From a virus (lineage: Duplodnaviria; Heunggongvirae; Uroviricota; Caudoviricetes), in the IMG/VR virus record IMGVR_UViG_2778261639_000005: a DNA stretch of 17,896 bases, one strand, 5' to 3'. The position numbers and the translations under genes were made by a program. Position 1 is the first letter of the stretch. Every line of letters begins with the position of its first letter. Positions 1 through 17,896 of this stretch are shown piece by piece. A model generated the notes under the pieces. The model had not been told where the DNA came from and made no database searches. It saw only the letters and a program-made list of their open reading frames with translations.

Positions 1-7
1 CGGCCGT

Positions 8-1778: not shown

Positions 1779-1965
1779 CGTTCTGGATGTTGATCTGAAC
1801 CGACTGAAAGAAAATCGGGAAGCAATGACAGATTTTTATGCGGCCATCCGTAAGGGCAGAGCGAAAGGTGAAGCCGAGTTACGAGCGGCATTGTTTAAGC
1901 TTGCCAGAAAAGGGGATGCCTTTGCTCTGCGCGAACTACTCAGGGTGGATAAAAATCAGGACTAA
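1714..1965 (+). CDS. Small hypothetical protein (83 aa), basic and helical; possible DNA-binding or packaging accessory
   Basis: ATG 1714 with GGGGG SD about 6 nt upstream; overlaps the 3' end of the previous gene by 65 nt in another frame; stop TAA 1963-1965 sits 3 nt before the terminase small subunit start. Alternative start ATG 1756 lacks an SD. Confidence 0.45.
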   Translation: MIPYSKVESLAACRMTAQQIADVLDVDLNRLKENREAMTDFYAAIRKGRAKGEAELRAALFKLARKGDAFALRELLRVDKNQD

Positions 1966-1968
1966 CTG

Positions 1969-3063: not shown

Positions 3064-4345
3064 TGTGCCTCAGGCGCGATTTCTTTCAATGCCCCATAAA
3101 TTTAAAGCCTATATTGCTGGTTTTGGCTCGGGCAAAACATGGGTTGGGTGTGGCGGCATATGCAAGGGGATTTGGGAGCATCCAGGTATAAATCAGGGAT
3201 ATTTTGCGCCAACGTATCCCCAAATTCGCGATATTTTTTACCCTACAGTGGAAGAAGTTGCTGCTGACTGGGGATTGAACGTAAAAATTAATGAGGGAAA
3301 TAAAGAGGTTCACTTTTATTACGGACGCCAGTATCGGGGAACCACTATCTGCAGATCGATGGAGAAGCCACAAACGATCGTCGGTTTCAAAATTGGTAAT
3401 GCGCTGGTGGATGAACTGGACATTTTGCCGAAGGAAAAAGCCAGAACGGCGTGGCGCAAGATAATTGCGCGTATGCGTTATAAGATTGATGGACTTCGCA
3501 ACGGTATTGACGTTACAACCACGCCGGAAGGATTCAAATTTGTCTACGAGCAGTTTGTTAAAGCCGTGCGTGAAAAAACAGAGCTGGCCTCACTGTATGG
3601 TCTGGTGCAGGCATCTACTTTCGATAATGAAAAGAACCTGCCAGCAGATTACATTCCTTCACTTCTTGAATCATACCCTCCAGAGCTGATTAAAGCCTAT
3701 CTTCTAGGACGGTTTACTAACCTGACAAGTGGTACTGTTTACCATCAGTTTGACCGGAAACTGAATAATTGCGAAGAAGTGGAGCAGCCAGGGGAGCCGA
3801 TTTATATTGGGATGGATTTTAACGTTGGAAAGATGGCGGGAATCGTCCATGTGCTGCGTTTGGGGCTTCCATGTGCGGTAACTGAAATCATCAATGCCTA
3901 CGATACGCCGGATATGATCCGCCTCATTAAAGAACGCTTCTGGCTGTATGACGGGCATGATTACCGGAAAGTGAGGGAGATTTATATTTATCCAGATGCT
4001 TCCGGAGATTCCAGAAAATCAAGTAACGCAAGTACGACGGATATAGCCCAGCTTAAGCAGGCAGGTTTTAACGTTGTGGTGAACAGCTCGAACCCGCCAG
4101 TAAAAGATCGCGTTAACTCAATGAATGCAATGTTCTGCAATGCCAATGGTGAGCGTCGCTATAAAGTTAATGTGAAGCGTTGTCCGGTATATGCCGAATC
4201 TCTGGAGCAACAGGTCTGGGATGATAAGGGGGAGCCTGATAAAAAATCTGGCAATGATCACCCGAATGATGCCGGAGGTTATTTCATCGTTAAGCAATTC
4301 CCTATTGTCAAACCGACCGGAAGAGTCACATCACTTCGGATTTAA
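3044..4345 (+). CDS. Terminase large subunit
   Basis: Walker A motif AGFGSGKT near the N-terminus. AAGGAG SD at 3030-3035 lies 8 nt before ATG 3044; the track start 3035 is GTG with ATG 3038 too close to the SD. Follows the small subunit and precedes the portal. Confidence 0.85.
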   Translation: MISPTLNVPQARFLSMPHKFKAYIAGFGSGKTWVGCGGICKGIWEHPGINQGYFAPTYPQIRDIFYPTVEEVAADWGLNVKINEGNKEVHFYYGRQYRGTTICRSMEKPQTIVGFKIGNALVDELDILPKEKARTAWRKIIARMRYKIDGLRNGIDVTTTPEGFKFVYEQFVKAVREKTELASLYGLVQASTFDNEKNLPADYIPSLLESYPPELIKAYLLGRFTNLTSGTVYHQFDRKLNNCEEVEQPGEPIYIGMDFNVGKMAGIVHVLRLGLPCAVTEIINAYDTPDMIRLIKERFWLYDGHDYRKVREIYIYPDASGDSRKSSNASTTDIAQLKQAGFNVVVNSSNPPVKDRVNSMNAMFCNANGERRYKVNVKRCPVYAESLEQQVWDDKGEPDKKSGNDHPNDAGGYFIVKQFPIVKPTGRVTSLRI

Positions 4346-4347
4346 TT

Positions 4348-5754
4348 ATGGCTGATATATCAACACCCAACCTCGACTATAACGATATGCTGGAGGCGTG
4401 GGATATTAACGACGCATTGATGGGCGGTACGCTTGAAATGCGCAGGCAGGGGGAAAATTATCTCCCCAAATGGCCTAATGAAGATGAAGACGCTTATAAA
4501 AAACGCCTGTCTGTGGCTACGTTACTTCCTGTGTATGAAGAAAGCATCAAACAAAATATTGGGCGCATATTTGCAGAGCCGACAGTATTGAGTGAGGAAA
4601 CGCCGGAAAAAATCAGGGAATATGCAGAAAATATCGACATGGAGGGGAGCCGACTGGATGTGTGGGCGCAGCAATTTTTCAGTCTCGCATTTCAGTATGG
4701 TGTGGCACATGCGCTGGTGGACTATCCACGAACGGATATGAACGAGATTCGGACAAAAGCCGATGAAAACGCGGCCGGTGGTCGCCCGTACGTTACGATG
4801 CTGAATCCACGCCAGGTTATTGGATGGAAATCGAAAGTTGAAAAAGGGAAAGTTGTTCTCACTGATTTGCGTATAAAAGAGGTCATCATTATTGATGGTG
4901 ATGATTTCGGGCAGAAGAAGGTGGAGCAGATCCGCCATATTATGCCCCGTCGAGTAGAAATTTATCGACGCAGCGAAGGTACTAATGGCGAATCTGTCTG
5001 GATGCTTCATGAGTCATGGAATACCAGCCGTGATGATATTCCTCTGGTAACACTGTATACGAAGAAAACAGGGTTTATGCGTGGTACACCGCCATTGCTT
5101 AATCTTGGCTTGCTGAATATCAAGCACTGGCAAAGCCAGAGCGAGCAGGACAATATTCTTCATGTTGCCCGCGTTCCATTGCTGGTGGCCTACGGGCTGG
5201 ACAGGAATGAAGAACTGACGGTTGGTGCATCCACGGCTACGATTTTTGAGGACAGAACAAAAAATGGCCTCGAATATGTTGAACATAGTGGCGCAGCGAT
5301 AGAATCTGGCGAAACATCACTTGAGAAGCTGGAAAATCAGATGCGTCATTCCGGCGCTAAACTTCTGCGGGCTGAAAATACATCCACCAAATCTGTTGAT
5401 CAGACTAATGAAGAGCGGATGCAGGAACACTCGCCGCTTTATACAATGGCGAACTCCCTCGAAGATGCCCTCGATAATATTCTCCAGATAATGGCGGAAT
5501 GGAGCGGAGAGAGTTGCGGTGGCAATGTGGATGTGCGCACTGAACTGGATGTATCTGCCCAGGTGTTTGACTCATCCTCCGCGCTGGCTGTTCAGTCATT
5601 GCGTCAGGGCGGTGATATACGTCAGATTGATGCGGTTCGGGTGTTGCAGGCGTTGAAATTTATCGATCAGGATTCCCGTCCAGAGGAAGTGATCGATGAA
5701 TTAAAAAATCAGAGTGTAATGCTGATGGAAATCAATGATGCAAACCGTGAATGA
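4348..5754 (+). CDS. Portal protein (putative)
   Basis: 468-aa ORF immediately after the terminase large subunit (stop TAA 4343-4345, ATG 4348) and overlapping the start of the head morphogenesis gene. Size and position are canonical for a portal; no diagnostic motif was verified by eye. Confidence 0.65.
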   Translation: MADISTPNLDYNDMLEAWDINDALMGGTLEMRRQGENYLPKWPNEDEDAYKKRLSVATLLPVYEESIKQNIGRIFAEPTVLSEETPEKIREYAENIDMEGSRLDVWAQQFFSLAFQYGVAHALVDYPRTDMNEIRTKADENAAGGRPYVTMLNPRQVIGWKSKVEKGKVVLTDLRIKEVIIIDGDDFGQKKVEQIRHIMPRRVEIYRRSEGTNGESVWMLHESWNTSRDDIPLVTLYTKKTGFMRGTPPLLNLGLLNIKHWQSQSEQDNILHVARVPLLVAYGLDRNEELTVGASTATIFEDRTKNGLEYVEHSGAAIESGETSLEKLENQMRHSGAKLLRAENTSTKSVDQTNEERMQEHSPLYTMANSLEDALDNILQIMAEWSGESCGGNVDVRTELDVSAQVFDSSSALAVQSLRQGGDIRQIDAVRVLQALKFIDQDSRPEEVIDELKNQSVMLMEINDANRE

Positions 5755-6850
5755 ACGGCTGCGTGATGAATCAATTGCTCATGCAGTCTGGATATCCCGC
5801 TATAGCACTGGCGTGGCTGCCAGAATGGTGAAAATACTGAATGACAGCGATGCGGAACTTACTGCTCGCCTGCTGATAGCACTGGACAGCCTCGATCCAG
5901 GTAGTTTTACCGTTAAGCGCCTGGAGTCACTTCTGGCGAGCGTCAGAGAGGTTAACCGCACTGCTATTAACAGCATGTTTACCAGTCTCTCCGGAGAGCT
6001 GAACGAGCTGGCAATTTATGAGGCTGGTTATCAGTTAAGTCTGTTTGATTCTATGCTACCTGATTTTGTTGCTGATGTTCACCCTCTGGTTGGTATCTCT
6101 CCTGATGCACTTTATGCCGCTGCAATGGCGCGACCATTCCAGGGACGACTGCTCAGTGAGTGGGCCTCAGATCTTGAGGCGGATCGGCTCAGACGCATAA
6201 CAAATACAGTGCGTCAGGGTTTTTTGCTGGGGGATACCAATGAGCAGATCGCAAGAAAAATTCGGGGACATGTCAGTAAGGGATTTCAGGATGGTGCATT
6301 GCAGATGAGCCGGGCTAATGCGGCCAGCATTGCAAAAACAGCGGTTGGACATCTTGCTGCTACTGCCCGTGAGAGTTTTGCCAGCGCGAATAATGATTTG
6401 ATTAAGGGTAAGCAATGGTTATCAACGCTTGATAATCGTACTACGCCACAATGTCGAATCAGGGATCGCCTCAAATATACGCTGAATAATAAACCTGTAG
6501 GTCACAGCGTGCCTTATTTGCAGGGGCCGGGAAAAATTCATTTCTGCTGCCGCTCAACGGAAACGTTCATTCTGAAATCAGCGAAGGAACTGGGTATTGA
6601 TGTTCGCGATATTTCCCCGGCTGAGCGGGCCAGCATGGATGGCGTGGTGGCCGGAGATACAACCTACAGGGAATGGTTTTTGCGTCAGCCTTACACCAGA
6701 CAAAAACAGATTGTGGGGGAAAGCCGAGCAAAGCTGATTCGGGATGGTGGTATGTCGCCAGATGAATTTTACACCGATAAAGGCGAATGGCTGACGCTGA
6801 AGCAGCTCCGTGAGCGTGATGCACAGGTATTCAGAAAAGCAGGGATTTAA
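5735..6850 (+). CDS. Head morphogenesis protein (Mu gpF / SPP1 gp7 family)
   Basis: C-terminal region DNRTTPQCRIRDRL...HSVPYLQGPGKIHFCCRST fits the Phage_Mu_F signature (D-x-R-T...C-R...P...H-x-x-C-R). Located directly after the portal. Stop TAA 6848-6850. Confidence 0.7.
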   Translation: MMQTVNERLRDESIAHAVWISRYSTGVAARMVKILNDSDAELTARLLIALDSLDPGSFTVKRLESLLASVREVNRTAINSMFTSLSGELNELAIYEAGYQLSLFDSMLPDFVADVHPLVGISPDALYAAAMARPFQGRLLSEWASDLEADRLRRITNTVRQGFLLGDTNEQIARKIRGHVSKGFQDGALQMSRANAASIAKTAVGHLAATARESFASANNDLIKGKQWLSTLDNRTTPQCRIRDRLKYTLNNKPVGHSVPYLQGPGKIHFCCRSTETFILKSAKELGIDVRDISPAERASMDGVVAGDTTYREWFLRQPYTRQKQIVGESRAKLIRDGGMSPDEFYTDKGEWLTLKQLRERDAQVFRKAGI

Positions 6851-6869
6851 ATAAATCATTTATTACAAC

Positions 6870-6895
6870 AGGCTACCTTCGGGTGGCCTTTTTTA
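6870..6895 (+). terminator. Intrinsic terminator-like hairpin with UUCG tetraloop and T-run
   Basis: AGGCTACC(6870-6877)-TTCG-GGTGGCCT(6882-6889) forms an 8-bp stem with one G-U pair, followed by TTTTT. Lies 20 nt after the head morphogenesis stop. Confidence 0.6.
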
Positions 6896-6954
6896 TTGCT
6901 GCGATCCGGATGGTGAGCAGCGTAACTGTCGGAAGACTTAAACCAGGTACTAAT

Positions 6955-7719
6955 ATGAAACTGAAAACGGTCGAGATTAACGGAAAACAATACGCAGAAA
7001 TTGATACTGCTGGCCTGCCAGTTTATGTGCACGACGATGGTAAAGAAATTGGCTTCGATGCACCGCTGGCGACAAAAAAAATTACAGAGCTTAATGGCGA
7101 GGCAAAAAATCATCGCCTGGCTAAAGAAGCTGCAGAGGAAAAACTGGCTAAGTTTGCCGCTATCGAAGACCCGAAGAAGGCGATCGAGGCACTGGAAATG
7201 CTGTCAAAAATCGACCAGAAAAAGCTGCTCGATGCGGGACAGGTTGACCAGGTTAAGGCAGAAATTACGAAAAATTTTCAGCAGCAATTAGATGAAGAAA
7301 AGCAACGCTCTCAGATGCTGGAGAAGCAGCTTTACGATTCTATGATTGGCGGTAGTTTTGCGGGTTCAAAATATATTGCCGATAAAATTGCGATCCCGGC
7401 AGATTTATTACAAGCCCGCTTCGGGCAGGCATTCAAAGTGGAAGAAGGGAGGATCGTTGCTTATGACGCTTCCGGCAACAAAATTTATTCCCGCGCGAAG
7501 CCTGGCGAACTGGCGCAGTTTGATGAGGCGCTGGAGTTCCTTGTCGAAAATTACCCTCAGAAAGACTACATCCTGAAAGCCAGTGGCAACAATGGCGGCG
7601 GCTCCCGTCCGACACAGCATGATATTGGTCAGAAAACGATGAAACGCTCTGCTTTTGATGCACTGGATGTTGCAGGTAAGCAAAACGCATTGAAAGACGG
7701 TATCACAATCGTTGATTAA
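6955..7719 (+). CDS. Putative scaffolding protein
   Basis: Hydrophilic, Lys/Glu/Ala-rich, predicted coiled-coil protein between the head morphogenesis and major capsid genes. Start taken as ATG 6955 because track start 6883 (GTG) lies inside the terminator hairpin; ATG 6910 is an alternative. Confidence 0.45.
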   Translation: MKLKTVEINGKQYAEIDTAGLPVYVHDDGKEIGFDAPLATKKITELNGEAKNHRLAKEAAEEKLAKFAAIEDPKKAIEALEMLSKIDQKKLLDAGQVDQVKAEITKNFQQQLDEEKQRSQMLEKQLYDSMIGGSFAGSKYIADKIAIPADLLQARFGQAFKVEEGRIVAYDASGNKIYSRAKPGELAQFDEALEFLVENYPQKDYILKASGNNGGGSRPTQHDIGQKTMKRSAFDALDVAGKQNALKDGITIVD

Positions 7720-7817
7720 CACATTTGTCAGCTTCCGGATGGGAGCTGGTGTCAGGGCTGGATAGCTCATTACTCCATCTATTCACAATTACGCAAATTT
7801 TTAAGGAATATTTAATT

Positions 7818-8957
7818 ATGGCTGGAAATACCCTGACCGGGTTGATCCCGACTATTTATACCGCCCTGGATGTTGTATCCCGTGAGCAGGTAGGTTTTAT
7901 CCCTGCGGTAGCAAAAAACGCAAAAGCTGACGCCGCAGCAAAAGATCAGACGGTAACCGCGCCAGTTGCGCCTGAGGCGAAAACCGAAGATATCGTACCG
8001 GGGCCGTCAGCTCCGAATACCGGTGATCAGAATATTGGCACTGTTGATGTAAAAATTACTAAATCCAAAATGGCACCGGTTAAATGGAATGGTGAAGAAC
8101 AACTGGCTCTTGGCCCTTCAGGGACTTACAACACCATTCTGGCTGATCAGTTCAAGCAGGCTTTTCGCGCCCTTGCAAACGAGGTTGAGGCTGATCTTGG
8201 TGCGTTGTATTTCGGTGCTTCCCGCGCCGTGGGAACCGCAGGGACAACGCCGTTTGGTGTTAAAGATGATCTTTCTGATGCTGCTCTGGCTCGTCAGGTT
8301 CTGGAGGATAACGGCGCACCGACAACCGATCTGCAGATGGTGCTTGGCTCCACTGCCATTGCTAATTTGCGCGGAAAACAGTCTGTATTGTTTAAAGTGA
8401 ATGAATCCGGCACTGAACAGCTACTGCGTGAGGGCGTGTTGGGGCGTCTGGAGGGATTCAATATTCACAGTTCGGCAGGTGTGAAACGAGCGCCAAAGGT
8501 TGCTGCAACTGGTTATCTCGTGAATGGAGAGAAAAAAGAAGGCGATGTTCTTATTTCCATTGATACTGGTTCGGGGAGTATTTCTGCAGGTCAGATTGTT
8601 ACGTTCGCTGGTGATCCGAATCAGTATGTTGTGGCAGCAGCGACCAGCAATCTGATTACTCTTGCAGCGCCCGGACTGCGTCAGGATCTGGCCGATGATA
8701 CTGCCATCACAGTTGTTGGGGCCTTTACTGCAAATATGGCGTTTGATCGCAACGCGTTTCTGCTGGTATCCCGTACTCCGGCAATGCCGGAAGGTGGCGA
8801 TAATGCTGATGATGTAATGAATGTTACGGACCCGATTTCAGGGATTACGTTCCAGATTGCACTGTATCGTCAGTATCGCCAGGTGCGCTATGAAGTTGGA
8901 CTGGCATGGGGTGTTTCATCAGTGAAGCCGGCACATGGTTGTCTGATTCTTGGTTAA
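7818..8957 (+). CDS. Major capsid (coat) protein
   Basis: 379-aa ORF with AAGGA SD (7803-7807) upstream of ATG 7818, following the scaffold gene and followed by a strong terminator, the typical arrangement for a highly expressed coat gene. The track ORF start 7725 is an upstream in-frame extension without an SD. Confidence 0.65.
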   Translation: MAGNTLTGLIPTIYTALDVVSREQVGFIPAVAKNAKADAAAKDQTVTAPVAPEAKTEDIVPGPSAPNTGDQNIGTVDVKITKSKMAPVKWNGEEQLALGPSGTYNTILADQFKQAFRALANEVEADLGALYFGASRAVGTAGTTPFGVKDDLSDAALARQVLEDNGAPTTDLQMVLGSTAIANLRGKQSVLFKVNESGTEQLLREGVLGRLEGFNIHSSAGVKRAPKVAATGYLVNGEKKEGDVLISIDTGSGSISAGQIVTFAGDPNQYVVAAATSNLITLAAPGLRQDLADDTAITVVGAFTANMAFDRNAFLLVSRTPAMPEGGDNADDVMNVTDPISGITFQIALYRQYRQVRYEVGLAWGVSSVKPAHGCLILG

Positions 8958-8966
8958 ACATTCAAA

Positions 8967-8986
8967 CGGGGCTTCGGCCCCATTTT
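8967..8986 (+). terminator. Intrinsic terminator (GC stem, UUCG loop, T5)
   Basis: GGGGC(8967-8971)-TTCG-GCCCC(8976-8980) followed by ATTTTT, 10 nt after the capsid stop TAA 8955-8957. Confidence 0.65.
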
Positions 8987-9179
8987 TAATGGGGGGCATA
9001 TGGCCGGATTAACTAAAGAGCAAAGAGCACAGCGTGAAGCCGCACAAAAAACGCAAATTGAGTTAGTGGTTATGGTGACCGATTATCAGATGTTTCCCGG
9101 CGCACCAACTATCGCTAATGTTCATCCTGATGAAGTTGACAACTGGAAGGCTATGGGCTGGAAAACTCAGGAGTAACAC

Positions 9180-9575
9180 ATGATCACTTACGTGACCTGT
9201 GATGACGTTGATAATGCGTTTGGGAACGCCTGGACGAGTGAGAACGCTAAAAATAAAGCTGTTTTAATGGCTAATGCCTGGCTTAATGGCTTCAACCTGA
9301 AAATTAACCCATCCCGTATTCCGGAAGAGGTAAAACTTGCGGGAGCATATGCAGCCAGAATTGCCTCATTCGGTAAGTTGTTTCAGCAGAAAAATGATTC
9401 TGGCGTTGTTATCAGTAAAGCCGTGTCGGCTGACGGGGTCAGTGTATCGAAATCATTTTCTGAGTTGCCAGCAAACAGCACTGCATTGCTTGAACCCGAT
9501 TTACAGCTTGCGATAGCACTGCTGAAACCGTACGGACTTAGTCGCTCACAAGTCAGGGTTGTGAGGGGGGGATAA
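9180..9575 (+). CDS. Head-tail connector / head completion protein (putative)
   Basis: 131-aa ORF with CAGGAG SD at 9167-9172 and ATG 9180; first of four tightly coupled small genes between capsid and major tail. N-terminus loosely resembles the gp6-like connector family. Confidence 0.5.
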   Translation: MITYVTCDDVDNAFGNAWTSENAKNKAVLMANAWLNGFNLKINPSRIPEEVKLAGAYAARIASFGKLFQQKNDSGVVISKAVSADGVSVSKSFSELPANSTALLEPDLQLAIALLKPYGLSRSQVRVVRGG

Positions 9576-9958
9576 TGGGGCTTCGTGAAGAGATTCAGTC
9601 AGAGGTTGCCGCTGCTTTTGATGAGGATTTAGCGGACGCCGTGAGTGATTTTTCTGGTTCTTACGTTACGCACCGGCACTGGGATCCTGTGACGGAAACT
9701 GGCGGCGAATCCACCGCAATCTATACCGGGCGAGGCGTGTTGACACGTTATAAGCTGGGCAGAATTGATGGGATTAATATTTTGCATGGTGACCTTAAAT
9801 TAACCGCTCTGGTATGCGAGGTTACGGATAAACCAGCTGTCGACCATATTATTGAGATTTATGATCCTGTATCAAGGCAGTTACAACGATACGAGGTAAT
9901 TACAGCAAGTGTAGATCCTTCCGCATCAGTTTACTCTATCCAGTTAAGGAGAGCGTAA
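9575..9958 (+). CDS. Head-tail joining / head closure protein (putative)
   Basis: ATG 9575 overlaps the upstream stop TAA 9573-9575 by 1 nt, with a G-rich SD upstream; 127 aa; position in the operon. Confidence 0.4.
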   Translation: MGLREEIQSEVAAAFDEDLADAVSDFSGSYVTHRHWDPVTETGGESTAIYTGRGVLTRYKLGRIDGINILHGDLKLTALVCEVTDKPAVDHIIEIYDPVSRQLQRYEVITASVDPSASVYSIQLRRA

Positions 9959-10339
9959 ATGGCAAAGGCATGGGATATAGAACCGTCAATATTTGCCGGG
10001 ATGATTGAGGAAGATGTAGGGCTGAAGATTCGCTACATCGCTATGCAGATTCTTACTGCTATTGATATTGCTGCTCCGGTTGATACCGGACGTTTCAGAA
10101 ATAACAACCTGGTGTCGTTACAGCATCCCGATTTTGGTATATCTGATAACGTGGATCCGAACGGTACGATTGCTGTTCAGCGTGGGATCGGGGTTATTTC
10201 GAAAGCTGCAAATTACGGGGTTATTTATATCCAGAATAACCTTCCTTATGCAGAGGCTCTTGAAAACGGTCATTCACAACAAGCGCCAACTGGCGTGTAT
10301 GCCAACGCTTTTCATGGTGTTTTACAGGCTTACAAATGA
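9959..10339 (+). CDS. Tail component protein, HK97 gp10-like
   Basis: Motif IAAPVDTGRFRNNN matches the conserved P-x-DTG-x-L/F-R-x-S/N signature of the HK97 gp10 family. AGGAGAG SD upstream; ATG immediately after the upstream stop. Confidence 0.55.
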   Translation: MAKAWDIEPSIFAGMIEEDVGLKIRYIAMQILTAIDIAAPVDTGRFRNNNLVSLQHPDFGISDNVDPNGTIAVQRGIGVISKAANYGVIYIQNNLPYAEALENGHSQQAPTGVYANAFHGVLQAYK

Positions 10340-10728
10340 AGTTTACTGAAATCAGAAATACGGTTATTTCCAGAATGACGGCACAGACGATTATTGATGG
10401 AAAAGACGTATTGTATCCGAACGGGCCAACGTTCGATCCTTCCGGTAAGTTAATCTGGGCGCGGTTAAGTAATATTCCCGGGCAGGCTGGAGTTAATGAA
10501 ATTGGCGCGGGGCCGGTTGTTTATCGCACGGGGATAATCATTATTCAGTTATTTGTCCCCGCAGGTTCTGGTTCAAAACTCATTACTGAGACAGCCGATA
10601 AATTGCGGGAACTGTTTGAGTTTCAGGATGACGATCGTCTCAGTTACCAGGCTGTTTCCTCAATAGCCGTTGGCGAAAAGAATGGCTGGTTCCAGCTTAA
10701 TCTTCAAATTCCATATCGCGCGCTCTAG
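10336..10728 (+). CDS. Tail completion / tail terminator-like protein (putative)
   Basis: 130-aa ORF with an ATGA start-stop overlap with the upstream gene; positioned just before the major tail protein. Confidence 0.4.
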   Translation: MKFTEIRNTVISRMTAQTIIDGKDVLYPNGPTFDPSGKLIWARLSNIPGQAGVNEIGAGPVVYRTGIIIIQLFVPAGSGSKLITETADKLRELFEFQDDDRLSYQAVSSIAVGEKNGWFQLNLQIPYRAL

Positions 10729-10754
10729 CGCAATTAATGACATAGGAGGCTCCT

Positions 10755-11717
10755 GTGAGTTCAGGTGCAAAGGTTATCTCGGCATTTATCCGGGAGACGG
10801 TTGCAGGCACTACGCCAGCAAGTGGTGACTGGAGTTTATTAAAACGCACAAGCTGGGGAGTAAAACCCACCCAGAATAAAGGCGAAAATAATGAGATTGG
10901 TGGCTCCCGGATGGCTCAGGGGGCGACGCCTGGCACTGTGGATGTCGGCGGTGATGTTGGTACCAAATTTCGCTGGGGTCAACATGATGATTTTCTTGCA
11001 TCCTGTTTCGGCGCGGAATGGTCAGGCGATTCTCTGACAATGGGGAATGAGCGAATAACATTTTCTCTGGCGACCTATGCGTCCGATGTCGGAATTGCCT
11101 CTGTCGTCAGAGGAGCGCAGGTTGGCTCATGGAAAATGCAGATCCCTAACGACGGCGATATTACAGCGACCGTAACCTTTGCCGGACTGGACTGGGAATC
11201 AAAGGCCGATGATACGAATTTTATCAAAGGCGAACCTGTGGATAGTGCAGGAAAGCTACGTTATTCGTTTAAGGAGGTTTCAGCAGTAAGCCTGAATGGT
11301 GTTGCCGGAGGTAACGGTTTTTGTATCGACAGTTTTGATATTCAGTTCGATAACAAACTCCAGACACAGCGTTGTATCGGGACTGGCTCGCCTTATGCAG
11401 GAGCAAATATTCCGACTACTTTTACACCGTCCGGTACGGTGACGCTTTCATGGTCTAAAGCCGCGTGGGAAATCTGGAGTAAAACACTGACTGGAGAAAC
11501 AGTTCCGTTCAGCTTCACGCTTTCGAATGGAGAGGGGGCATACACTTTCAGTTTCCCGAAGGTTCAGGTGTCAGGTGAATGGCCTGATGGGGGTAATAGC
11601 GACATTATCCAGGTTCAATTGAGCATTACCGCAGCAGATGAAGCACCTACGATAACCAGAAAAAAAAATTCCCCGGCTGCCGTGATCGCAAAAGCCAGTG
11701 CTGAGGCGATTAGTTGA
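10755..11717 (+). CDS. Major tail (tube) protein
   Basis: GTG start 10755 with GGAGG SD at 10744-10748; 320 aa, Gly/Ser/Thr-rich and beta-rich; immediately upstream of the chaperone and tape measure genes. Confidence 0.6.
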   Translation: MSSGAKVISAFIRETVAGTTPASGDWSLLKRTSWGVKPTQNKGENNEIGGSRMAQGATPGTVDVGGDVGTKFRWGQHDDFLASCFGAEWSGDSLTMGNERITFSLATYASDVGIASVVRGAQVGSWKMQIPNDGDITATVTFAGLDWESKADDTNFIKGEPVDSAGKLRYSFKEVSAVSLNGVAGGNGFCIDSFDIQFDNKLQTQRCIGTGSPYAGANIPTTFTPSGTVTLSWSKAAWEIWSKTLTGETVPFSFTLSNGEGAYTFSFPKVQVSGEWPDGGNSDIIQVQLSITAADEAPTITRKKNSPAAVIAKASAEAIS

Positions 11718-11765
11718 TTTTCCGTTATTCCTCCTGTGGTACTGCCCTACAGGGGGACGCATTGA

Positions 11766-12227
11766 ATGAGGTTATGGATGTTTATTCTTAATCAGAAAAT
11801 TATCATTGGTGGAGAACGCTGGTTTACGCCAATGAAGGACTTAAAACCTGTAGACGGGTTAAAACTGTTGGTGGCAAGCAGCGATAACGATCAGTATCGC
11901 TCCCGTAATGCATTAATCCGTCGCCACATTGAGAAAATGGATGCCAGTTTGCACGTCGGAACGAAGGAGTTTGATATTTCAAAGGTTTCCGAGGTGGATT
12001 CTGTTGATGATTTACTCATTGATAATGCCGCTCGTTATCTGCTGAAAGACTGGAAAGGGGTTGGTGAACTGGTTAATGGTGTTGAGGTTGCACTGGAATA
12101 TACGGCAGAACGAGGGATCGCGCTGCTTAAGCAGAATCCAGAGTTGTACTGGCAGATCCTTGCAGAAGCAGCCAGCATCGCCCAGGGTAAAGAGCAGCAG
12201 AAGCAGGATACGATAAAAAAGCCATAG
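11766..12227 (+). CDS. Tail assembly chaperone (G-like)
   Basis: ATG 11766 with GGGGGA SD 8 nt upstream; 153-aa acidic protein between major tail and tape measure genes; a slippery heptamer sits 4 nt before its stop TAG 12225-12227. Confidence 0.6.
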   Translation: MRLWMFILNQKIIIGGERWFTPMKDLKPVDGLKLLVASSDNDQYRSRNALIRRHIEKMDASLHVGTKEFDISKVSEVDSVDDLLIDNAARYLLKDWKGVGELVNGVEVALEYTAERGIALLKQNPELYWQILAEAASIAQGKEQQKQDTIKKP

Positions 12228-12535
12228 CTGCCCAGCGGTGGTTATCGGAGTTCGGGGGAGAAAGGGGGGAAAAGGCAAGATGGAAGCGAGAAAAACTCAG
12301 GTTGCCACCGATACCGGAACCAGAAATAGACCCGGTGCTTAAGGAGTTGTTGTACGCCTATTCGGTAATATCCCGTGCCCGACGTTATGCTGGAATGGCT
12401 GGGGTGCCTTTGCCTTTATCTCTGACAGAGATAAATGAATATTTAGCCACTCATCCGGTATTGATTGAGCGCGATGAATTTGAAGCAGTGATCTTTGCAC
12501 TGGATGACCAGTATTTTCAGGAGCAGTGTGTGTAG
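11766..12535 (+). CDS. Tail assembly chaperone frameshift fusion (GT-like), predicted -1 shift at 12215-12221
   Basis: The -1 frame is open from 12191 to the TAG at 12533-12535 and overlaps the end of the G-like ORF. The A_AAA_AAG heptamer at 12215-12221 is phased as AAA AAG in the zero frame. The track ORF 12302..12535 is the downstream part of this frame. Confidence 0.5.
12215..12221 (+). other. Programmed -1 ribosomal frameshift slippery site A_AAA_AAG
   Basis: Heptamer AAAAAAG with correct zero-frame phasing near the 3' end of the chaperone gene, and an open -1 frame downstream. Confidence 0.55.
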
Positions 12536-12655
12536 TTGTTAATTACGTACACTCTGTTACAGAGATGTGATGGTGTCTTTAATTAAATCGATGATGCTCC
12601 TGGAGAAAAGCATTGCGTGGCCTCGTAATCGCTATATCTACTATTATGTCGCCTG

Positions 12656-12680
12656 AAACCCACTTCGCGGTGGGTTTTTT
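12656..12680 (+). terminator. Terminator-like hairpin between the chaperone and tape measure genes
   Basis: AAACCCAC(12656-12663)-TTCGCG-GTGGGTTT(12670-12677) gives a perfect 8-bp stem followed by TTT, 20 nt upstream of the tape measure SD AGGAG (12687-12691). Confidence 0.55.
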
Positions 12681-12700
12681 GTTGTCAGGAGTTTTAATAA

Positions 12701-15700
12701 ATGGCAGAGCAAACCTCGCGTCTCGCAATAATTATTGATAGCACTGGAGCGAAAAATAATGCTGACAATCTGACCTCCTCATTAGTCAAAATGACGCAGG
12801 CTGGGGAAACTGCTGCAAATAGCGCAGGGAAAGTGACTAAGGCAACAGAAGATGAGAAGAACGCGCTCGCAAAATTAAAAGCAGCTATTGATCCAGTTGG
12901 TGCCGCAATTGATACTGTCGGTCGACGCTATTCTGAATTAAAGAAATTTTTCGATAAAGGGCTTATTGATAAAGAAGAATATGAATTTCTTGTCCGTAAA
13001 CTTAATGAAACCACAGAGGAATTGAGCGGGGTTGCGCAAGCGCAGAGAGAAGCCGAGAAGGCCGGAAAACTTGCTGCCGCCCAGCAGGAAGCGCAGGCTC
13101 AGGCCTTTCAAAGAATGCTGGACAAGATCGACCCTCTGGCTGCGGCGCTAAGAAATCTTGAACAACAGCATGATGAACTTAATGCTGCGTTTGCATCCGG
13201 GAAAATAAATGGTTCTCAGTTTGAGAATTATAGCCGAAAAATACAGGAAACACGGCGAGAGCTTACCGGAGAGGCTCAGGCAGAGCGAGAAGCAGCAAAA
13301 GCGCATGATGAACAGGTTGTTGCTTTGCAACGTCTGATTGCTCAACTTGATCCTGTCGGAACTGCTTTTAATCGTCTGGTAGAACAACAGAAACAGCTCA
13401 ATGAAGCAAAAGCTAAGGGGATGCTTTCTCCTGAAATGTATGAGGAGCTTTCTGGAAAACTTCGTGCTATGCGGAGTGAGCTTGAGGTTACTCAATCACA
13501 ATTAAGCAAAACCGGAATGTCGGCAAAACAAACGGCTTTTGCTATGCGCATGTTGCCTGCACAAATGACGGATATTGTTGTTGGGTTGTCCACTGGTCAG
13601 TCGCCATTTATGGTGTTAATGCAGCAGGGCGGCCAGCTAAAAGATATGTTCGGTGGGATTGGCCCGGCGATCAAAGGTGTAGGTTCTTATGTGCTGGGAT
13701 TAATTAATCCTTTTACCCTGGCCGCAGCAGCCGTTGGGGTCTTAGGACTGGCTTACTATAAAGGCTCTCAGGAGCAGGACGAATTTAATAAATCTCTTAT
13801 TCTTACCGGAAATCAGTTGGGGACAACCAGCGGGCAATTGGGCGATATAGCTCAACGTGCCGGGAATGCGGCTGATTCGACAACTGGTGCTGCGGCGGCA
13901 GTATTAAATCAGCTTGTGCGTTCGGGAAAGGTAGCGAGCAGTTCGCTGGAGCAAGTGACGACAGCGATAGTAAAAACGAGCGAAGTAACAGGAATATCAA
14001 CCGAACAACTGGTTAATGACTTCAATGAAATTGCAAAGGATCCTGTCAGTGCCATATCAAAACTTAATGATCAGTACCATTTTCTGACACTTGCGACTTA
14101 TAACCAGATTAAGGCGCTACAGGATGAAGGGAACCAGCAGGAGGCCGCCCGCATTGCGACAGAAGAATACTCATCCTCAATGATCCAGCGCACCAACCAG
14201 ATTAAAGAAAATCTTGGTTATCTTGAGACTGCATGGAAAGCTGTCGCAGACTCCGCAAAATGGGCATGGGATTCCATGCTGGATATTGGCCGTGAGGCCT
14301 CCCTTGATCAAAAAATCTCAGATGTTCTCCGTCAAATTGATGAAATAGAAAAAAATACCCGACCCGGAGTTTTCGGGTTAGGTGGCATTGGAGATGGCGG
14401 AGCTCAAAATAAAAGGCTGGCACGATTAAAGCAGCAATTGGGCGTACTTCAAGCAGAAAAAATTGCTCAGGACGTACTAAATTCATCAATAAACGATTAC
14501 AACAAGCGACAACAGGAAGGAATTGAACTCAGACAGAGAGCAGATGCCTTTTCAAAACAATATCAGACCCGGGAGCAGCAGAGAGCTAGTGAACTTGCAA
14601 AACTGGAAAAGCTAAAGAATCAGTATTCAAAGGAAGAATATAATAATCTTATCGCTCAAATAAATGAGCGTTATAAAGATCCAAAGCAACCAAAGGCGAA
14701 AGGTTATTCTGATGATGCAGCCCAACGAATGATTGATCATCTGAATCAACAGAATGCGTTACTAAGTTCACAAGCTGAGTTGACCGTTAAATTAAGTTCC
14801 TCTGAACAGGAACTGGTTAAGTGGCGTCAGCGGATTGCCGACCTAGAGTCACGACCATCAACGAAATTAACCCAGGATCAGAAATCGCTTCTCTTACACC
14901 GGGAAGAAATAACCGCGTTGATGGAGAAAAATGTTGCGATTGAAAAAAATAACAGGCTAATCAAGGAATCCGCCGAAATAACAGCATGGCGTGATTCATT
15001 GCAGGCTTCGATTGATAATCGTCAGCAGGGGTATGATATTCAGATTGCTGGTTATGGGGTTGGCGATAAAAATCAGCAACGCCAGCAGGAATTACTGCGG
15101 ATTGAACATGGATATAACAATCAGCGTCTGCAACTTGAACGTGACTATGCAGATAAATCCCGTGGAATGTCAGATCATGTTTTTCAAGAGAAAATGCAGG
15201 CTCTGAATGATGCTCTGGAACGGGAAAAAGAAATTGTCAGACAGAAAAACGAGCAGCTCGATATTCAGGCAGGAGACTGGGTTAGTGGTGCCTCCCAGGG
15301 ATTCAATAACTGGCTGGATGACACTAAGGATATCAGTGAGCAGATAAAATCAACCACGACTCAGATGTTTGATGGGATGACCGATGCGCTGGGTGATTTT
15401 GTCACGACAGGCAAGGCAAATTTTCGTTCTTTCGCTACTTCCGTGATTTCGGATCTTAGTCGAATAGCATTAAAGGCTTCAATTACTGGGATTTTCGACA
15501 GCATTAGTAACAGTTCTTCTGGGGGGATTTTAGGAACTATCGGGAGTGCTATTAGTAAATTTATTCCGAATGCAAAGGGCGGTGTTTATGAGTCTCCGTC
15601 ATTGAGCACGTATTCGAACGGTATTTATGATTCCCCGCAATTTTTTGCTTTTGCAAAAGGGGCTGGTGTTTTTGGTGAGGCTGGACCGGAAGCCATTATG

Positions 15701-15934
15701 CCATTAACACGAACTTCCGATGGTTCTCTTGGTGTCAGAGCTATTAATAGTAAAAGTGGTAATGGAGGCGGAGATATTACCTATGCCCCTGTATACCAAA
15801 TCACTATTCAAAATGACGGCCAGAATGGAGAGATTGGCCCTCAGGCAATAAAAGCACTTATGGGGATGGTTGATCAGCGGGTGCAGGGCAATCTGTTAAA
15901 TATGCGACGTGATGGGGGAATGTTAAGTGGCTAA
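12701..15934 (+). CDS. Tail tape measure protein (lambda H-like, 1077 aa)
   Basis: Long coiled-coil N-terminal half, central hydrophobic segment [39 protein letters not shown], and C-terminal [16 protein letters not shown]...RRDGGMLSG, which resemble lambda gpH as I recall it. Sits after the chaperone pair and before the M-like gene. Confidence 0.9.
12863..13510 (+). repeat. Three tandem protein-level repeats of about 65-75 aa in the tape measure N-terminal region
   Basis: Repeated pattern (I/L)DP(V/L)(G/A)...EL(S/T)G(V/E)AQA(Q/E)REA(E/A)KA at roughly aa 57-121, 137-201 and 209-270 of the tape measure protein. Confidence 0.5.
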
Positions 15935-16265
15935 TACGGAAGAATTTCACTGGTTACCAGAGGATGGAATGAAAACAGAAAATAAACCATCGATAAAAAC
16001 TGTAAGATTTGGTGATGGTTATGAGCAACGAAGTCCAAATGGACTTAATCATTCTCTGCGCGTTTTCACCTGTGATTTCAAAGTTGAGGCGAATGAACGT
16101 GATTCATTTGAAAAATTTTTAGCCCGGCATGAAGGCTATAAATCTTTTTTTTGGCGCCCGCCGGGTATTAACAGAAAAATCAGAGTGGTGTGTCGAACGT
16201 GGTCAGCGACAGAACATATCACCTATACCGATTTTTCGTGTCAGTTTGACGAAGTGGTGATCTGA
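15927..16265 (+). CDS. M: Minor tail protein M (lambda gpM-like)
   Basis: Motif [16 protein letters not shown] and ...KSFFWRPP...FDEVV match lambda M as recalled (VRFGDGYSQRAPAGLN ... KSFLWTPP ... FEQVV). GTG start overlaps the tape measure stop by 8 nt. 112 aa. Confidence 0.85.
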
Positions 16266-16963
16266 TGCAGGACATACAACAGGAAACGCTGAATGAATGC
16301 ATTCGTGCGGAGCAGTCGGCCAGCGTGGTGCTCTGGGAAATCGACCTGACCGAGGTAGGCGGGGATCGCTACTTTTTCTGCAATGAGCAGAACGAGAAAG
16401 GAGAGTCTGTCACCTGGCAGAGTCGGCAGTATCAGGCCTATCCCATTCAGGGGCGTGGATTTGAGATGAACGGCAAAGGTGCCAGTGCAAGGCCAACGCT
16501 GAAAGTCTCTAATCTGCACGGCATGGTCACCGGGATGGCGGAAGACCTGCAGAGTCTGGTCGGCGGAACGGTGGTCAGGCGTAAGGTTTACGCCCGTTTT
16601 CTGGATGCGGTGAACTTCGTCAACGGAAACAGTGACGCCGATCCGGAGCAGGAGGTGATCAGCCGCTGGCGTATTGAGCAGTGCAGCGAACTGAGCGCGG
16701 TCAGTGCCTCCTTTGTACTGTCCACGCCGACGGAAACGGACGGCGCTGTTTTTCCGGGGCGCATCATGCTTGCTAATACCTGCACCTGGACCTATCGCGG
16801 TGATGAGTGCGGTTATCACGGTCCGGCGGTCGCGGATGAATATGACCAGCCAACGTCCGATATCACGAAGGATAAATGCAGCAAATGCCTGAGCGGCTGT
16901 AAGTTTCGCAATAACGTCGGCAACTTTGGCGGCTTCCTTTCCATTAACAAACTTTCGCAGTAA
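16265..16963 (+). CDS. L: Minor tail protein L (lambda gpL-like)
   Basis: [33 protein letters not shown]... and the C-terminal Cys cluster CTWTYRGDECGYHGP...CSKCLSGC closely resemble lambda L. ATG overlaps the M stop by 1 nt. Confidence 0.95.
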   Translation: MQDIQQETLNECIRAEQSASVVLWEIDLTEVGGDRYFFCNEQNEKGESVTWQSRQYQAYPIQGRGFEMNGKGASARPTLKVSNLHGMVTGMAEDLQSLVGGTVVRRKVYARFLDAVNFVNGNSDADPEQEVISRWRIEQCSELSAVSASFVLSTPTETDGAVFPGRIMLANTCTWTYRGDECGYHGPAVADEYDQPTSDITKDKCSKCLSGCKFRNNVGNFGGFLSINKLSQ

Positions 16964-16967
16964 ACCC

Positions 16968-17711
16968 ATGACAGAGACAGAATCAGCGATTCTGGCGCAC
17001 GCCCGGCGATGTGCGCCAGCGGAGTCGTGCGGCTTCGTGGTGAGAACGCCGGAGGGGGAAAGATATTTTCCCGGCGTGAATATCTCCGGTAGGCCGGAGG
17101 CGTATTTCCGGATGTCGCCGGAGGACTGGCTGCAGGCAGAAATGCAGGGTGAGATTGTGGCGCTGGTCCACAGCCACCCCGGTGGTCTGCCCTGGCTGAG
17201 TGAGGCTGACCGGCGGCTGCAGGTGCAGAGTGATTTGCCGTGGTTGCTGGTCTGCCGGGGGGCGATTCATAAGTTCCGCTGTGTGCCGCATCTCACCGGG
17301 CGGCGCTTTGAGCACGGGGTGACGGACTGTTACACGCTGTTCCGGGACGCTTACCATCTGGCGGGAATTGAGATGCCGGATTTTCATCGCGGGGATGACT
17401 GGTGGCGTCACGGTCAGAATCTCTATCTGGATAATCTGGAGGCAACGGGTTTTTACCGTGTCGTACTGACAGAGGCGCAGCCTGGCGATGTGCTGCTGTG
17501 CTGTTTTGGTTCATCGGTGCCGAATCACGCCGCCATTTACTGCGGCGACGGCGAGCTGCTGCACCATATTCCTGAACAACTGAGCAAACGAGAGAGGTAT
17601 ACCGACAAATGGCAGCGACGCACACACTCCCTCTGGCGTCACCGGGCATGGCGCGCATCTGCCTTTACGGGGATTTACAACGATTTGGCCGCCGCATCGA
17701 CCTTCGTGTGA
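16968..17711 (+). CDS. K: Tail tip assembly protein K (lambda gpK-like; JAMM/MPN plus NlpC/P60 motifs)
   Basis: ATG 16968 lies 4 nt after the L stop. JAMM motif HSHPGGLPWLSEAD (HxH-x7-S-x2-D), then a Cys (VTDCYTLF) and His (PNHAAIYCGDGELLHH) consistent with an NlpC/P60 domain. The track start 16926 is an upstream in-frame extension overlapping L. Confidence 0.9.
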   Translation: MTETESAILAHARRCAPAESCGFVVRTPEGERYFPGVNISGRPEAYFRMSPEDWLQAEMQGEIVALVHSHPGGLPWLSEADRRLQVQSDLPWLLVCRGAIHKFRCVPHLTGRRFEHGVTDCYTLFRDAYHLAGIEMPDFHRGDDWWRHGQNLYLDNLEATGFYRVVLTEAQPGDVLLCCFGSSVPNHAAIYCGDGELLHHIPEQLSKRERYTDKWQRRTHSLWRHRAWRASAFTGIYNDLAAASTFV

Positions 17712-17896
17712 AAACGGGGGCTGAAGCCATCCGGGCACTGGCCACACAGCTCCCGGCGTTTCGTCAGAAACTGTGCGACGGCTGGTATCAGGTACGGATT
17801 GCCGGGCGGGACGTCAGCTCGTCCGGGTTAACGGCGCAGTTACATGAGACTCTGCCTGATGGCGCTGTGATTCATATTGTTCCCAGAGTCGCCGGG
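17609..17896 (+). CDS. I: Tail assembly protein I (lambda gpI-like), 3'-partial, runs off the window
   Basis: ATG 17609 in a different frame from K and overlapping its last 103 nt. Translation MAATHTLPLASPGMARICLYGDLQRFGRRIDLRVKTGAEAIRALATQ... is open to the window end. Not in the ORF track because it has no stop in the window. Confidence 0.85.
   Translation, partial: MAATHTLPLASPGMARICLYGDLQRFGRRIDLRVKTGAEAIRALATQLPAFRQKLCDGWYQVRIAGRDVSSSGLTAQLHETLPDGAVIHIVPRVAG

Follow-up and report, generated by a model that had tools for sequence, protein, structure and literature searches.

The window analyzed here, a stretch of 17,896 nucleotides in which all reading frames are intact, is the structural-gene (late operon) region of an intact, full-length Rac-type lambdoid prophage of Escherichia coli. 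Very probably, this late operon consists of a non-lambda structural module joined at the boundary of tail genes M and L to a lambda-type tail tip cassette, with the DNA right of the joint having been exchanged afterwards. The head genes encode a capsid protein of the P22 coat family, a DUF4055 portal, and a Mu-F-like protein. Neither the head, the connectors, the tail tube, the G/GT chaperones, the tape measure protein, nor M is of the lambda type, and the entire left 16.2 kb of the window is non-lambda, a feature missed by the initial annotation. Scanning of the whole window against Rfam gave zero matches at gathering thresholds, and literature searches returned no description of either the Rac structural module or the M/L junction.

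The junction was located by comparison with lambda DNA, to which the window exhibited 93.4% nucleotide identity over positions 16243 to 17896 (1654 nucleotides, corresponding to lambda 13407–15060). Left of 16243, no nucleotide alignment to lambda was detected, even with 7-base words. The initial annotation had proposed a recombination junction at or near the M/L boundary (approximately 16.2–16.3 kb), consistent with this step from no similarity to 93% at 16243, exactly the M/L boundary, and with a change-point in base composition at 16303. Identity to lambda at the protein level was 28% for H, 40 to 42% for M, 93.5% for L, 95% for K, and 98% for the first 96 residues of I, in agreement with the earlier impression of moderately similar tape measure and M products followed by a near-identical L, K, and start of I. 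Lambda V, G, T, U, Z, and head proteins had zero matches in the window. Approximately 260 phage records match the window solely from 16243 or 16254 rightwards, and right-only matches in E. coli genomes begin at 16243 to 16313. Relationships of M and L are incongruent across the junction: pairwise M identities are roughly equidistant (window–lambda, 40%; window–BP-4795, 50%; lambda–BP-4795, 46%), whereas window L is 93.5% identical to lambda L and 76% identical to that of BP-4795. Incongruence between the two sides was seen both in these M and L identity matrices and in distance matrices computed separately for the left and right parts of 12 Rac-type loci.

The junction interval (16243–16264, forward strand, as are the features described here from 10755 to the window end) comprises the last seven codons of M and the TGATG stop/start overlap with L. 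Alignment of the window, lambda, BP-4795, MEI003, and SPF_0923 indicated that it is a short island kept among otherwise diverged M lineages, and because this stretch is conserved in all of them the junction is defined to approximately 22 nucleotides. The M lineages that share this island (GTGGTGAnCTGATGCAGGAnAT) are just 40 to 50% identical, and it may act as a preferred crossover “linker,” although we regard this as unlikely. If true, non-homologous siphovirus tails could swap the whole L-K-I-J host-recognition cassette, and the common start of lambda homology in Rac-type and BP-4795/Stx2c-type phages would be explained. Chi sites were considered as a cause of the junction and rejected; the window contains three, all in head genes (3403, 4713, and 5181) and none near the junction. 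An assembly error or chimeric contig would account for the abruptness of the change and for nothing else, and has a probability close to nil given that 708 complete E. coli genomes, together with Shigella flexneri and Escherichia ruysiae, share the arrangement with the overlapping M and L frames intact.

Base composition was examined across the whole window, with GC contents of 0.480 for positions 1 to 12700, 0.446 for 12701 to 16242, and 0.581 from 16243 to the end. The change-point at 16303 is the strongest in the window (maximum likelihood; likelihood-ratio statistic 76 vs a null maximum of 14.9), and the sole secondary one, at 14303, lies within the tape measure gene (likelihood-ratio statistic 20.7; GC 0.479 to 0.425). 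The tape measure gene (12701–15934) has a GC content of 0.450 and a third-codon-position GC (GC3) of 0.38, and M (15927–16265) has values of 0.407 and 0.34; the corresponding values are 0.557 and 0.67 for L and 0.592 and 0.66 for K. Uniform GC and codon usage across 12.5 to 17.9 kb is excluded by the shift in GC3 from 0.34–0.38 to 0.66–0.67 at the boundary. Since the tail genes V to J of lambda and BP-4795 are all GC-rich (GC 0.52–0.60, or 0.54–0.60 in lambda; GC3 0.59–0.72), L and K have the composition of a lambda tail and the left side does not. One account without any horizontal exchange would place L, K, and I under far stronger purifying selection than drifting H and M, as might be suggested by the generally better conservation of L than of M between tip lineages (lambda vs BP-4795: M, 46%; L, 77%). 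This account is extremely improbable, however, as the 93% nucleotide identity on the right includes synonymous sites while nothing is alignable on the left, GC3 doubles on crossing the boundary, the relationships of M conflict with those of L, and near-identical left halves bear L-K-I alleles that are 5 to 8% apart.

Upstream of the tape measure gene, the major tail tube protein (10755–11717; Pfam Phage_tube_2, E = 9e-32) is of a non-lambda, Rac type, with 70% protein identity to the tube of Klebsiella phage ST16-OXA48phi5.1 and no match to lambda V. The tail assembly chaperone genes (11766–12535) comprise a G-like frame (11766–12227), named ydaY in K-12 and also annotated as ydaY in relatives, and a T-like −1 frameshift extension to 12535; a slippery heptamer, A AAA AAG, is found at 12215 to 12221, and between it and 12535 the −1 frame has no stop codon. 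Their products are 64% (G) and 65% (T) identical to proteins of the same Klebsiella phage. An AT-rich spacer of 165 nucleotides (12536–12700; GC 0.40) leads from the chaperone genes to the tape measure gene and ends in a terminator-like hairpin and T-run. The hairpin (12655–12678) is real, with a 10-bp stem, a folding energy of −18.5 kcal/mol, and a z score of −2.9.

The hairpin is not a mosaic boundary. It had been assigned, at 12656 to 12680, as the left boundary of exchange, an assignment that is contradicted by the lack of a GC change-point near 12.7 kb in the whole-window analysis and by continuous homology across it in the Klebsiella phage, in K-12 Rac, and in E. coli genomes. K-12 Rac carries 11876 to 13635 as a single block at 99.9% identity, positions 11668 to 13667 are present in one piece in 1061 of the 1080 E. 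coli genomes with any match, and the spacer itself is intact in K-12 Rac and these 1061 genomes. The description of tape measure and M as AT-richer than both neighbors holds against L and K but, for the tape measure gene as a whole, not against the genes upstream, which range from 0.446 to 0.511 in GC compared to 0.450 for the tape measure gene. A separately acquired, discrete AT-rich cassette of tape measure and M, bounded by the hairpin on the left and M/L on the right, would fit the placement of hairpin and AT-rich spacer directly before the tape measure gene, as well as the average GC of 0.446 for the two genes compared to 0.480 upstream. The probability of such a cassette is nonetheless very small, as GC differs little between 10755–12535 (0.486) and 12701–14200 (0.469) with no change-point between them, similarity to the Klebsiella phage is at a comparable level on both sides of the hairpin (tube, G, and T on the left, tape measure residues 1 to 480 on the right), and the region is in one piece in K-12 Rac and nearly all matching genomes. 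These continuities instead suggest that the tail tube, the G and T chaperones, and tape measure residues 1 to approximately 480 form one module.

The tape measure gene itself contains a real inner break of composition and similarity at approximately 14.15 to 14.3 kb. Its 5′ 45% (12701–14150; residues 1 to approximately 480, with Pfam TMP_2 at residues 267–471) goes with the upstream shaft module; identity to the ST16-OXA48phi5.1 protein is 62 to 97% over residues 1 to 480 and 27 to 47% thereafter, and the nucleotide match to this phage stops at 14163. The 3′ 55% (14151–15934; Pfam TMP_4 and Tape_meas_lam_C) is only remotely related to the corresponding part of lambda H, with 17 to 37% identity in 60-residue bins, and its last 120 residues are 58 to 75% identical to BP-4795. 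The MEI003 relative is unalignable over window positions 14148 to 14637, and the full-length product has 1077 residues as compared to 853 in lambda. The AT-richest block of the window begins in this 3′ portion (14201–16242; GC 0.428). This inner break, the weaker of the two, is very probably an older mosaic seam between a shaft-associated N-terminal part and a tip-associated C-terminal part.

M, the distal tail protein (15927–16265; Pfam Phage_min_tail, E = 1e-31), is of a type confined to Rac-type prophages of Escherichia and Shigella. A protein search for its parent among 50,697 phage records gave a bimodal distribution of identities, either at least 99% (10 records) or below 60% (546 records), and among species-representative genomes just Shigella flexneri and E. 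ruysiae exceeded 44%, both with the same M/L junction as the window. No left-side parent, i.e., a phage with the same M type and its own non-lambda L-K-I, was found in either collection, and base composition is accordingly the one line of evidence that points to a left parent and hence to the direction of the join and to its having arisen once.

Right of the junction, the hub protein L (16265–16963; Pfam Phage_tail_L, E = 1e-98) is 93.5% identical to lambda L in protein and 91.3% in nucleotide sequence. Forty-four of its 61 nucleotide differences from lambda fall at third codon positions, and with 93% nucleotide identity this indicates that synonymous sites are largely conserved too. All eight cysteines are kept, including residues 173, 182, 205, and 212, the four Fe-S cysteines (PMC10721106). 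K (16968–17711), with JAB/MPN and NlpC/P60 domains (Pfam Prok-JAB and NLPC_P60), is 95% identical to annotated lambda K; its start is likely the ATG at 16968, while the mechanically called frame begins at a TTG at 16926. The 5′ part of I (17609–17896), truncated by the window end, is 98% identical to residues 1 to 96 of lambda I. A further allele breakpoint lies within I at approximately 17811, where all 11 of the 11 Rac-type relatives stop aligning; lambda is still 98.5% identical past this position, to 17896. In the relatives, the tip cassette runs on through J and patches of stf/tfa. A search for a whole-length donor of the L-K-I allele in the window found none; beyond the group of 8 genomes to which it belongs, its best match is 96.2% identical, indicating that the allele is itself a patchwork.

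Within the Rac-type lineage, the two sides of the junction exhibit different histories, and L-K-I alleles right of it continue to be exchanged, which was missed by the initial annotation. Among 5426 complete E. coli genomes, the left piece was detected in 726, a junction-spanning piece in 708, and L-K DNA in 4371, with approximately 14,000 L-K-I copies outside the Rac-type loci. At an identity of at least 99%, the left piece was matched in 351 genomes, the right piece in 8, and the 5′ 295 nucleotides of L in 100. Compared with SPF_0923, the window has 0 mismatches in 15000 to 16277 and 121 in 16278 to 17809 (Fisher's exact test, p = 1.5e-33). Clade-A pairs differ at 0 to 5 positions on the left (1.5 kb) as opposed to 40 to 122 on the right, one pair shows the reverse (left, 26; right, 3), and the first mismatch varies by pair (16278, 16381, 16535, or 16711). 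Accordingly, the left and right distance matrices of the 12 Rac-type loci are decoupled. The identical junction position in all 708 genomes, E. ruysiae, and Shigella would also be compatible with a single ancient illegitimate join with no later exchange, the L-K-I diversity then reflecting faster mutation or relaxed constraint in a decaying prophage. This is very unlikely: left and right divergence are decoupled in both directions, transitions are patchy and step-like, and the changes are mostly at third positions with few amino acid differences, as in L of the window and SPF_0923 (65 nucleotides and just 13 residues). The most likely route of exchange is homologous recombination between the Rac-type prophage and lambda-like prophages that share its host cell. 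Some of the extra diversity on the right could instead go back to more than one independent acquisition in the distant past.

The different histories of the two sides are best explained as follows. The join probably formed once, before the lineage diversified, through recombination in or beside the M stop/L start island. The left side, for which the cell offers no other partner, has evolved clonally since. The right side shares 78 to 95% identity with L-K-I of other lambdoid prophages, present in approximately 80% of E. coli genomes, and through this shared identity is repeatedly overwritten in patches, most likely by homologous recombination, with the M/L boundary serving as the left limit of homology for such exchanges. 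The pattern is directly observed, and published experiments suggest that RecA or phage Red-beta/RecT-type recombinases may be the enzymes responsible; relaxed homologous recombination of lambda with the defective prophages Rac, Qin, and DLP12 takes place at 88 to 98% identity via Red-beta and RecA (De Paepe et al. 2014, PMC3945230). In the lambda tail, the hexameric ring of M sits on the trimeric hub of L and J through electrostatic stacking (PMC10721106). The genetic boundary is therefore also a structural one, and by analogy a chimeric tail with a foreign hub would plausibly be tolerated.

The window contains no flanking host DNA, and its chromosomal site, as taken from relatives of at least 98% identity, would be that of Rac-type relatives, whose neighbors are trkG/ynaK at one end and uspF-ompN-ydbK at the opposite end. 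Database “phage” records of the Rac type are PHASTER-predicted prophage regions rather than isolated virions and are thus uninformative on whether the tail works. Ecol_316 and FDAARGOS_1058 are examples of strains with an intact copy. The cryptic Rac prophage of K-12, a relative of the window at the same site between trkG and uspF/ompN (ynaK-ydaY-ynaA/tmpR-lomR region), is a double-deletion derivative of a window-type prophage. It matches window positions 111 to 315 and 11876 to 13635 at 99.5 to 99.9% identity and then continues directly into lomR, the matched remnants being ynaK, ydaY, and ynaA (99.5–99.9%). Two segments are missing from K-12 Rac: the equivalent of 316 to 11875, with the head and shaft genes, and the whole stretch between 13636 and lom, with the 3′ end of the tape measure gene, M, the M/L junction, and genes L, K, I, and J. 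The window represents the undeleted form. The value of the window is mainly housekeeping in that it shows K-12 Rac before its deletions.

The modular, or mosaic, genome model of lambdoid phages is due to Botstein and Hendrix, and the M/L junction is an ordinary, well-documented textbook case that introduces no new principle. As in other lambdoid gene-boundary mosaics, the transition is sharp and falls at a gene boundary, the block beyond it is common to many otherwise different phages, and exchange occurs with resident prophages; the window does not differ in kind, its specific feature being the contrast across the seam between a clonal side and a freely exchanged one. It thereby offers a clean, base-resolved lambdoid seam between a clonal side and a gene pool shared with resident prophages. 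Because the seam separates the M ring from the L/J hub, the host-recognition tip is exchangeable as a unit, which is relevant to host-range prediction from prophage sequence. Outside Escherichia, the left module has its closest relative in Klebsiella phage ST16-OXA48phi5.1 (MK416013; Mu-F-like protein, 73%), which, unlike the window, has a tail tip of another type (DUF1833 and others) that lacks M, L, K, and I. BP-4795/Stx2c-type phages represent a second lineage in which lambda homology starts at the M/L point (lambda approximately 13410). Lambda itself resembles the window in L, K, and I (and J) with regard to gene order, the M/L stop/start overlap, GC, GC3, and the cysteines of L, and differs from it upstream of L, where H is 28% and M 40 to 42% identical and the remaining genes have no match.

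The window was compared with lambda (NC_001416) by BLAST with 7-base words, and the sole nucleotide alignment pairs window 16243-17896 with lambda 13407-15060 at 93.4% identity. In a base-by-base view, identity per 20 nt climbs from 4-15 to 16-20 near 16247. Protein identity to lambda is 28% for the H-like tape measure (12701-15934; 871 aligned columns) and 40-42% for M (15927-16265), followed by 93.5% for L (16265-16963), 95% for K (16968-17711) and 98% for the first 96 residues of I (17609-17896, cut by the window end). The initial annotation had described H and M as only moderately lambda-like, L, K and the start of I as near-identical to lambda, and the junction as lying at or near M/L; these values confirm the right boundary and the lambda-likeness of L, K and I. 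Lambda V, G, T, U, Z, A, B, and E had no matches in the window. Pfam matches support the gene names (TMP_2/TMP_4/Tape_meas_lam_C, Phage_min_tail, Phage_tail_L, and Prok-JAB with NlpC/P60) and mark the head as non-lambda, with a P22-coat-family capsid protein and a DUF4055 portal.

Base composition undergoes a genuine and large step up at the M/L boundary. The tape measure gene (GC 0.450; third-codon-position GC [GC3] 0.38) and M (0.407; 0.34) are followed by L (0.557; 0.67) and K (0.592; 0.66), and the 16 genes upstream range over GC 0.446-0.511 and GC3 0.39-0.55. Maximum-likelihood segmentation of the whole 17.9-kb window, compared with shuffles, placed the dominant change-point at 16303 (likelihood-ratio statistic 76 versus a shuffle maximum of 14.9) and the sole weaker one at 14303 (20.7; GC 0.479 to 0.425), inside the tape measure gene and away from its start. 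The proposal that tape measure and M are AT-richer than both sides therefore holds rightwards (GC3 0.34-0.38 to 0.66-0.67) but fails leftwards for the tape measure as a whole, since GC is 0.469 in 12701-14200 versus 0.486 in the tube (10755-11717) and chaperone (11766-12535) genes. Across lambda and BP-4795, each of the tail genes, the major tail gene through J, falls within GC 0.52-0.60 (lambda 0.54-0.60) and GC3 0.59-0.72. In composition L-K-I matches a lambda-type tail, unlike the left side; this points to a lambda-type donor of L-K-I, with composition as the only guide to direction.

The junction is fixed in the lineage. A survey of 5426 complete E. coli genomes detected the left piece (14743-16242) in 726, a 2-kb segment across the junction in 708, and the L-K side alone in 4371; these right-only matches begin at window 16243, 16254, 16262, 16280 or 16313. 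An assembly artefact was rejected as the cause, since the same junction occurs in those 708 genomes and in Shigella flexneri and Escherichia ruysiae. Identity comparison also revealed a difference in relationships between M and L: the M proteins of three lineages are roughly equidistant (window-lambda 40%, window-BP-4795 50%, lambda-BP-4795 46%), whereas L pairs the window with lambda (93.5%) against BP-4795 (76-77%), incongruent with M. In SPF_0923, a phage-collection record (ON032529), the stretch resembling lambda is 5 kb long (92.4% identity), begins with L and takes in most of J, and more patches occur in stf and tfa; the joined block is the entire tip and host-recognition set.

The finest junction interval, 16243-16264, comprises the last seven M codons and the TGATG stop/start overlap, and is not narrowable further because every lineage conserves this stretch. 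At this island lambda and BP-4795 agree over 24 nt without a difference, despite M proteins only 46% identical, and lambda homology in the BP-4795/Stx2c-type lineage starts at the same point (lambda ~13410), making the M/L boundary a recurrent seam. The conserved M-stop/L-start island might be a preferred crossover site rather than a mere limit of homology, a reading that we regard as improbable. The onset of divergence varies between pairs (16278, 16381, 16535, 16711) and is not tied to one hot spot; partner sequence simply begins at the M/L boundary and does not exist farther left.

Rightwards of that limit, diversity is patchwise and decoupled from the left side. The window and SPF_0923 differ at 0 positions in 15000-16277 and 121 in 16278-17809 (Fisher's exact test, p = 1.5e-33). 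Among 12 Rac-type loci compared (left half, 14700-16242), five have left halves with 0-5 differing sites and right halves with 40-122, one pair is reversed (26 left, 3 right), and mean pairwise diversity is 3.1% left and 6.9% right. The left piece had matches of at least 99% in 351 genomes, the first 295 nt of L in 100, and the right piece in 8, the last figure indicating that the window L-K-I is itself a rare patchwork. Differences are concentrated at third codon positions (L of the window and SPF_0923 differ by 65 nucleotides but only 13 residues); the L-K-I variants are old, selected alleles undergoing shuffling, as opposed to decay. A further breakpoint lies within I at 17811, where the window departs from 11 of 11 Rac-type relatives and lambda remains 98.5% identical to the window end. 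This I allele, a further lineage-specific lambda-type patch, occurs in 8 genomes only.

The left limit of the cassette had been placed near a terminator-like hairpin at 12656-12680. A convincing structure of this kind exists (12655-12678 plus a T-run), at the end of a 165-nt AT-rich spacer (12536-12700; GC 0.40) between chaperone and tape measure genes, midway along a late operon, and Rfam returned zero matches for spacer or hairpin. A candidate 28-codon ORF (12569-12655), read by eye in the spacer, is in no tool's ORF list. As a mosaic boundary, the hairpin is rejected by continuous homology across it: 11876-13635 is unbroken in K-12 Rac, 11668-13667 is a single piece in 1061 of the 1080 E. 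coli genomes that match it at all, and Klebsiella phage ST16-OXA48phi5.1, whose tail tip is unrelated to the window's, matches on both sides (Mu-F-like 73%, tube 70%, G 64%, T 65%, and connector proteins; tape measure residues 1-480, 62-97%). Beyond residue ~480 identity drops to 27-47%, the nucleotide match to this phage stops at 14163, and E. coli MEI003 is unalignable over 14148-14637; together with the 14303 change-point, these place the true inner seam at ~14.15-14.3 kb, inside the tape measure gene. Tape measure proteins engage the G/GT chaperones and the tube through their N-terminal part, and their C-terminal part lies within the tip. The C-terminal helix of lambda gpH is located in the tip lumen (PMC10721106), and division of the tape measure at the inner seam makes functional sense. 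A canonical, in-frame -1 slippery heptamer, A AAA AAG, lies at 12215-12221 near the end of the G-like gene with the -1 frame open to 12535, and is the frameshift expected for G/GT tail chaperones; K-12 has no annotation for the T-like extension.

Ten phage-collection records match nearly the entire window at 98-98.5%. The best, 'Salmonella phage SPF_0923', carries trkG and a ParB-like gene at one flank and sitABCD, uspF, ompN, and ydbK at the other, and MEI003, the most divergent E. coli relative, is flanked likewise; the shared trkG and uspF-ompN-ydbK flanks identify the site of prophage Rac. SPF_0923 is labelled 'complete phage genome' yet both its ends hold chromosomal genes of E. coli type; it resembles a predicted prophage region together with flanking host DNA, and Salmonella as its host is doubtful. 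The 'vB_EcoS' records are PHASTER-predicted prophage regions rather than isolated phages. The annotated cryptic Rac of K-12 MG1655 matches only window 111-315 (ynaK; 99.5%) and 11876-13635 (99.94%; ydaY, an unannotated T-like frame, the spacer, and ynaA/tmpR, then directly lomR), and is thus a double-deletion derivative of a window-type prophage; the region described here is among the parts lost from K-12. One deletion took out 316-11875 and joined the ParB-like gene to a 3' portion of the G-like chaperone gene, and the other removed everything from 13636 to lom. The ynaK-ydaY and ynaA(tmpR)-lomR arrangements are deletion scars, making ydaY a tail assembly chaperone fragment and ynaA the initial ~311 tape measure codons. 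MEI003 has an HNH endonuclease gene, absent from the window, that separates the small from the large terminase gene and lies on the opposite strand to them (3294-4289 of the MEI003 locus); the annotation marks the MEI003 large terminase gene as truncated. IS1 insertions lie in or beside the tape measure/M/L region of some Rac-type prophages (E. coli ETEC1730; strain EC2), and in ETEC1730 the tape measure 5' part appears rearranged, adjoining a Lom-family gene. Window 2001-3000 (orf364, terminase small-subunit-like) is 92-95% identical to SPF_0923 as compared to 98-100% elsewhere, which suggests that the packaging genes also contain an exchanged patch. Three Chi sites (GCTGGTGG; 3403, 4713, 5181), all on the + strand, lie within the terminase and portal genes (expected count 0.53; three reached in 2 of 200 shuffles).

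In classical lambda tail assembly, the first sub-assembly is built from J, I, L, and K, and H and M are added afterwards, so that the exchanged block corresponds to an assembly unit. One face of the gpM hexamer binds the tube and the other stacks electrostatically on the trimeric gpL/gpJ ring (PMC10721106), and the seam coincides with this gpM versus gpL/gpJ interface. One founding join probably occurred at or beside the conserved island, with patches later replaced, most likely through homologous recombination with other lambdoid prophages, of which ~80% of genomes have copies (median 2-3 per genome). In experiments, lambda exchanges with Rac, Qin, and DLP12 at 88-98% identity through Red-beta and, where sequences are closer, RecA, and RecT of Rac is likewise competent (PMC3945230). 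A literature search found no description of this seam or of an intact Rac structural module. The seam is an instance of the long-established gene-boundary mosaicism of lambdoid phages, and what the window shows is an ordinary mosaic of lambdoid type within a Rac-type prophage.
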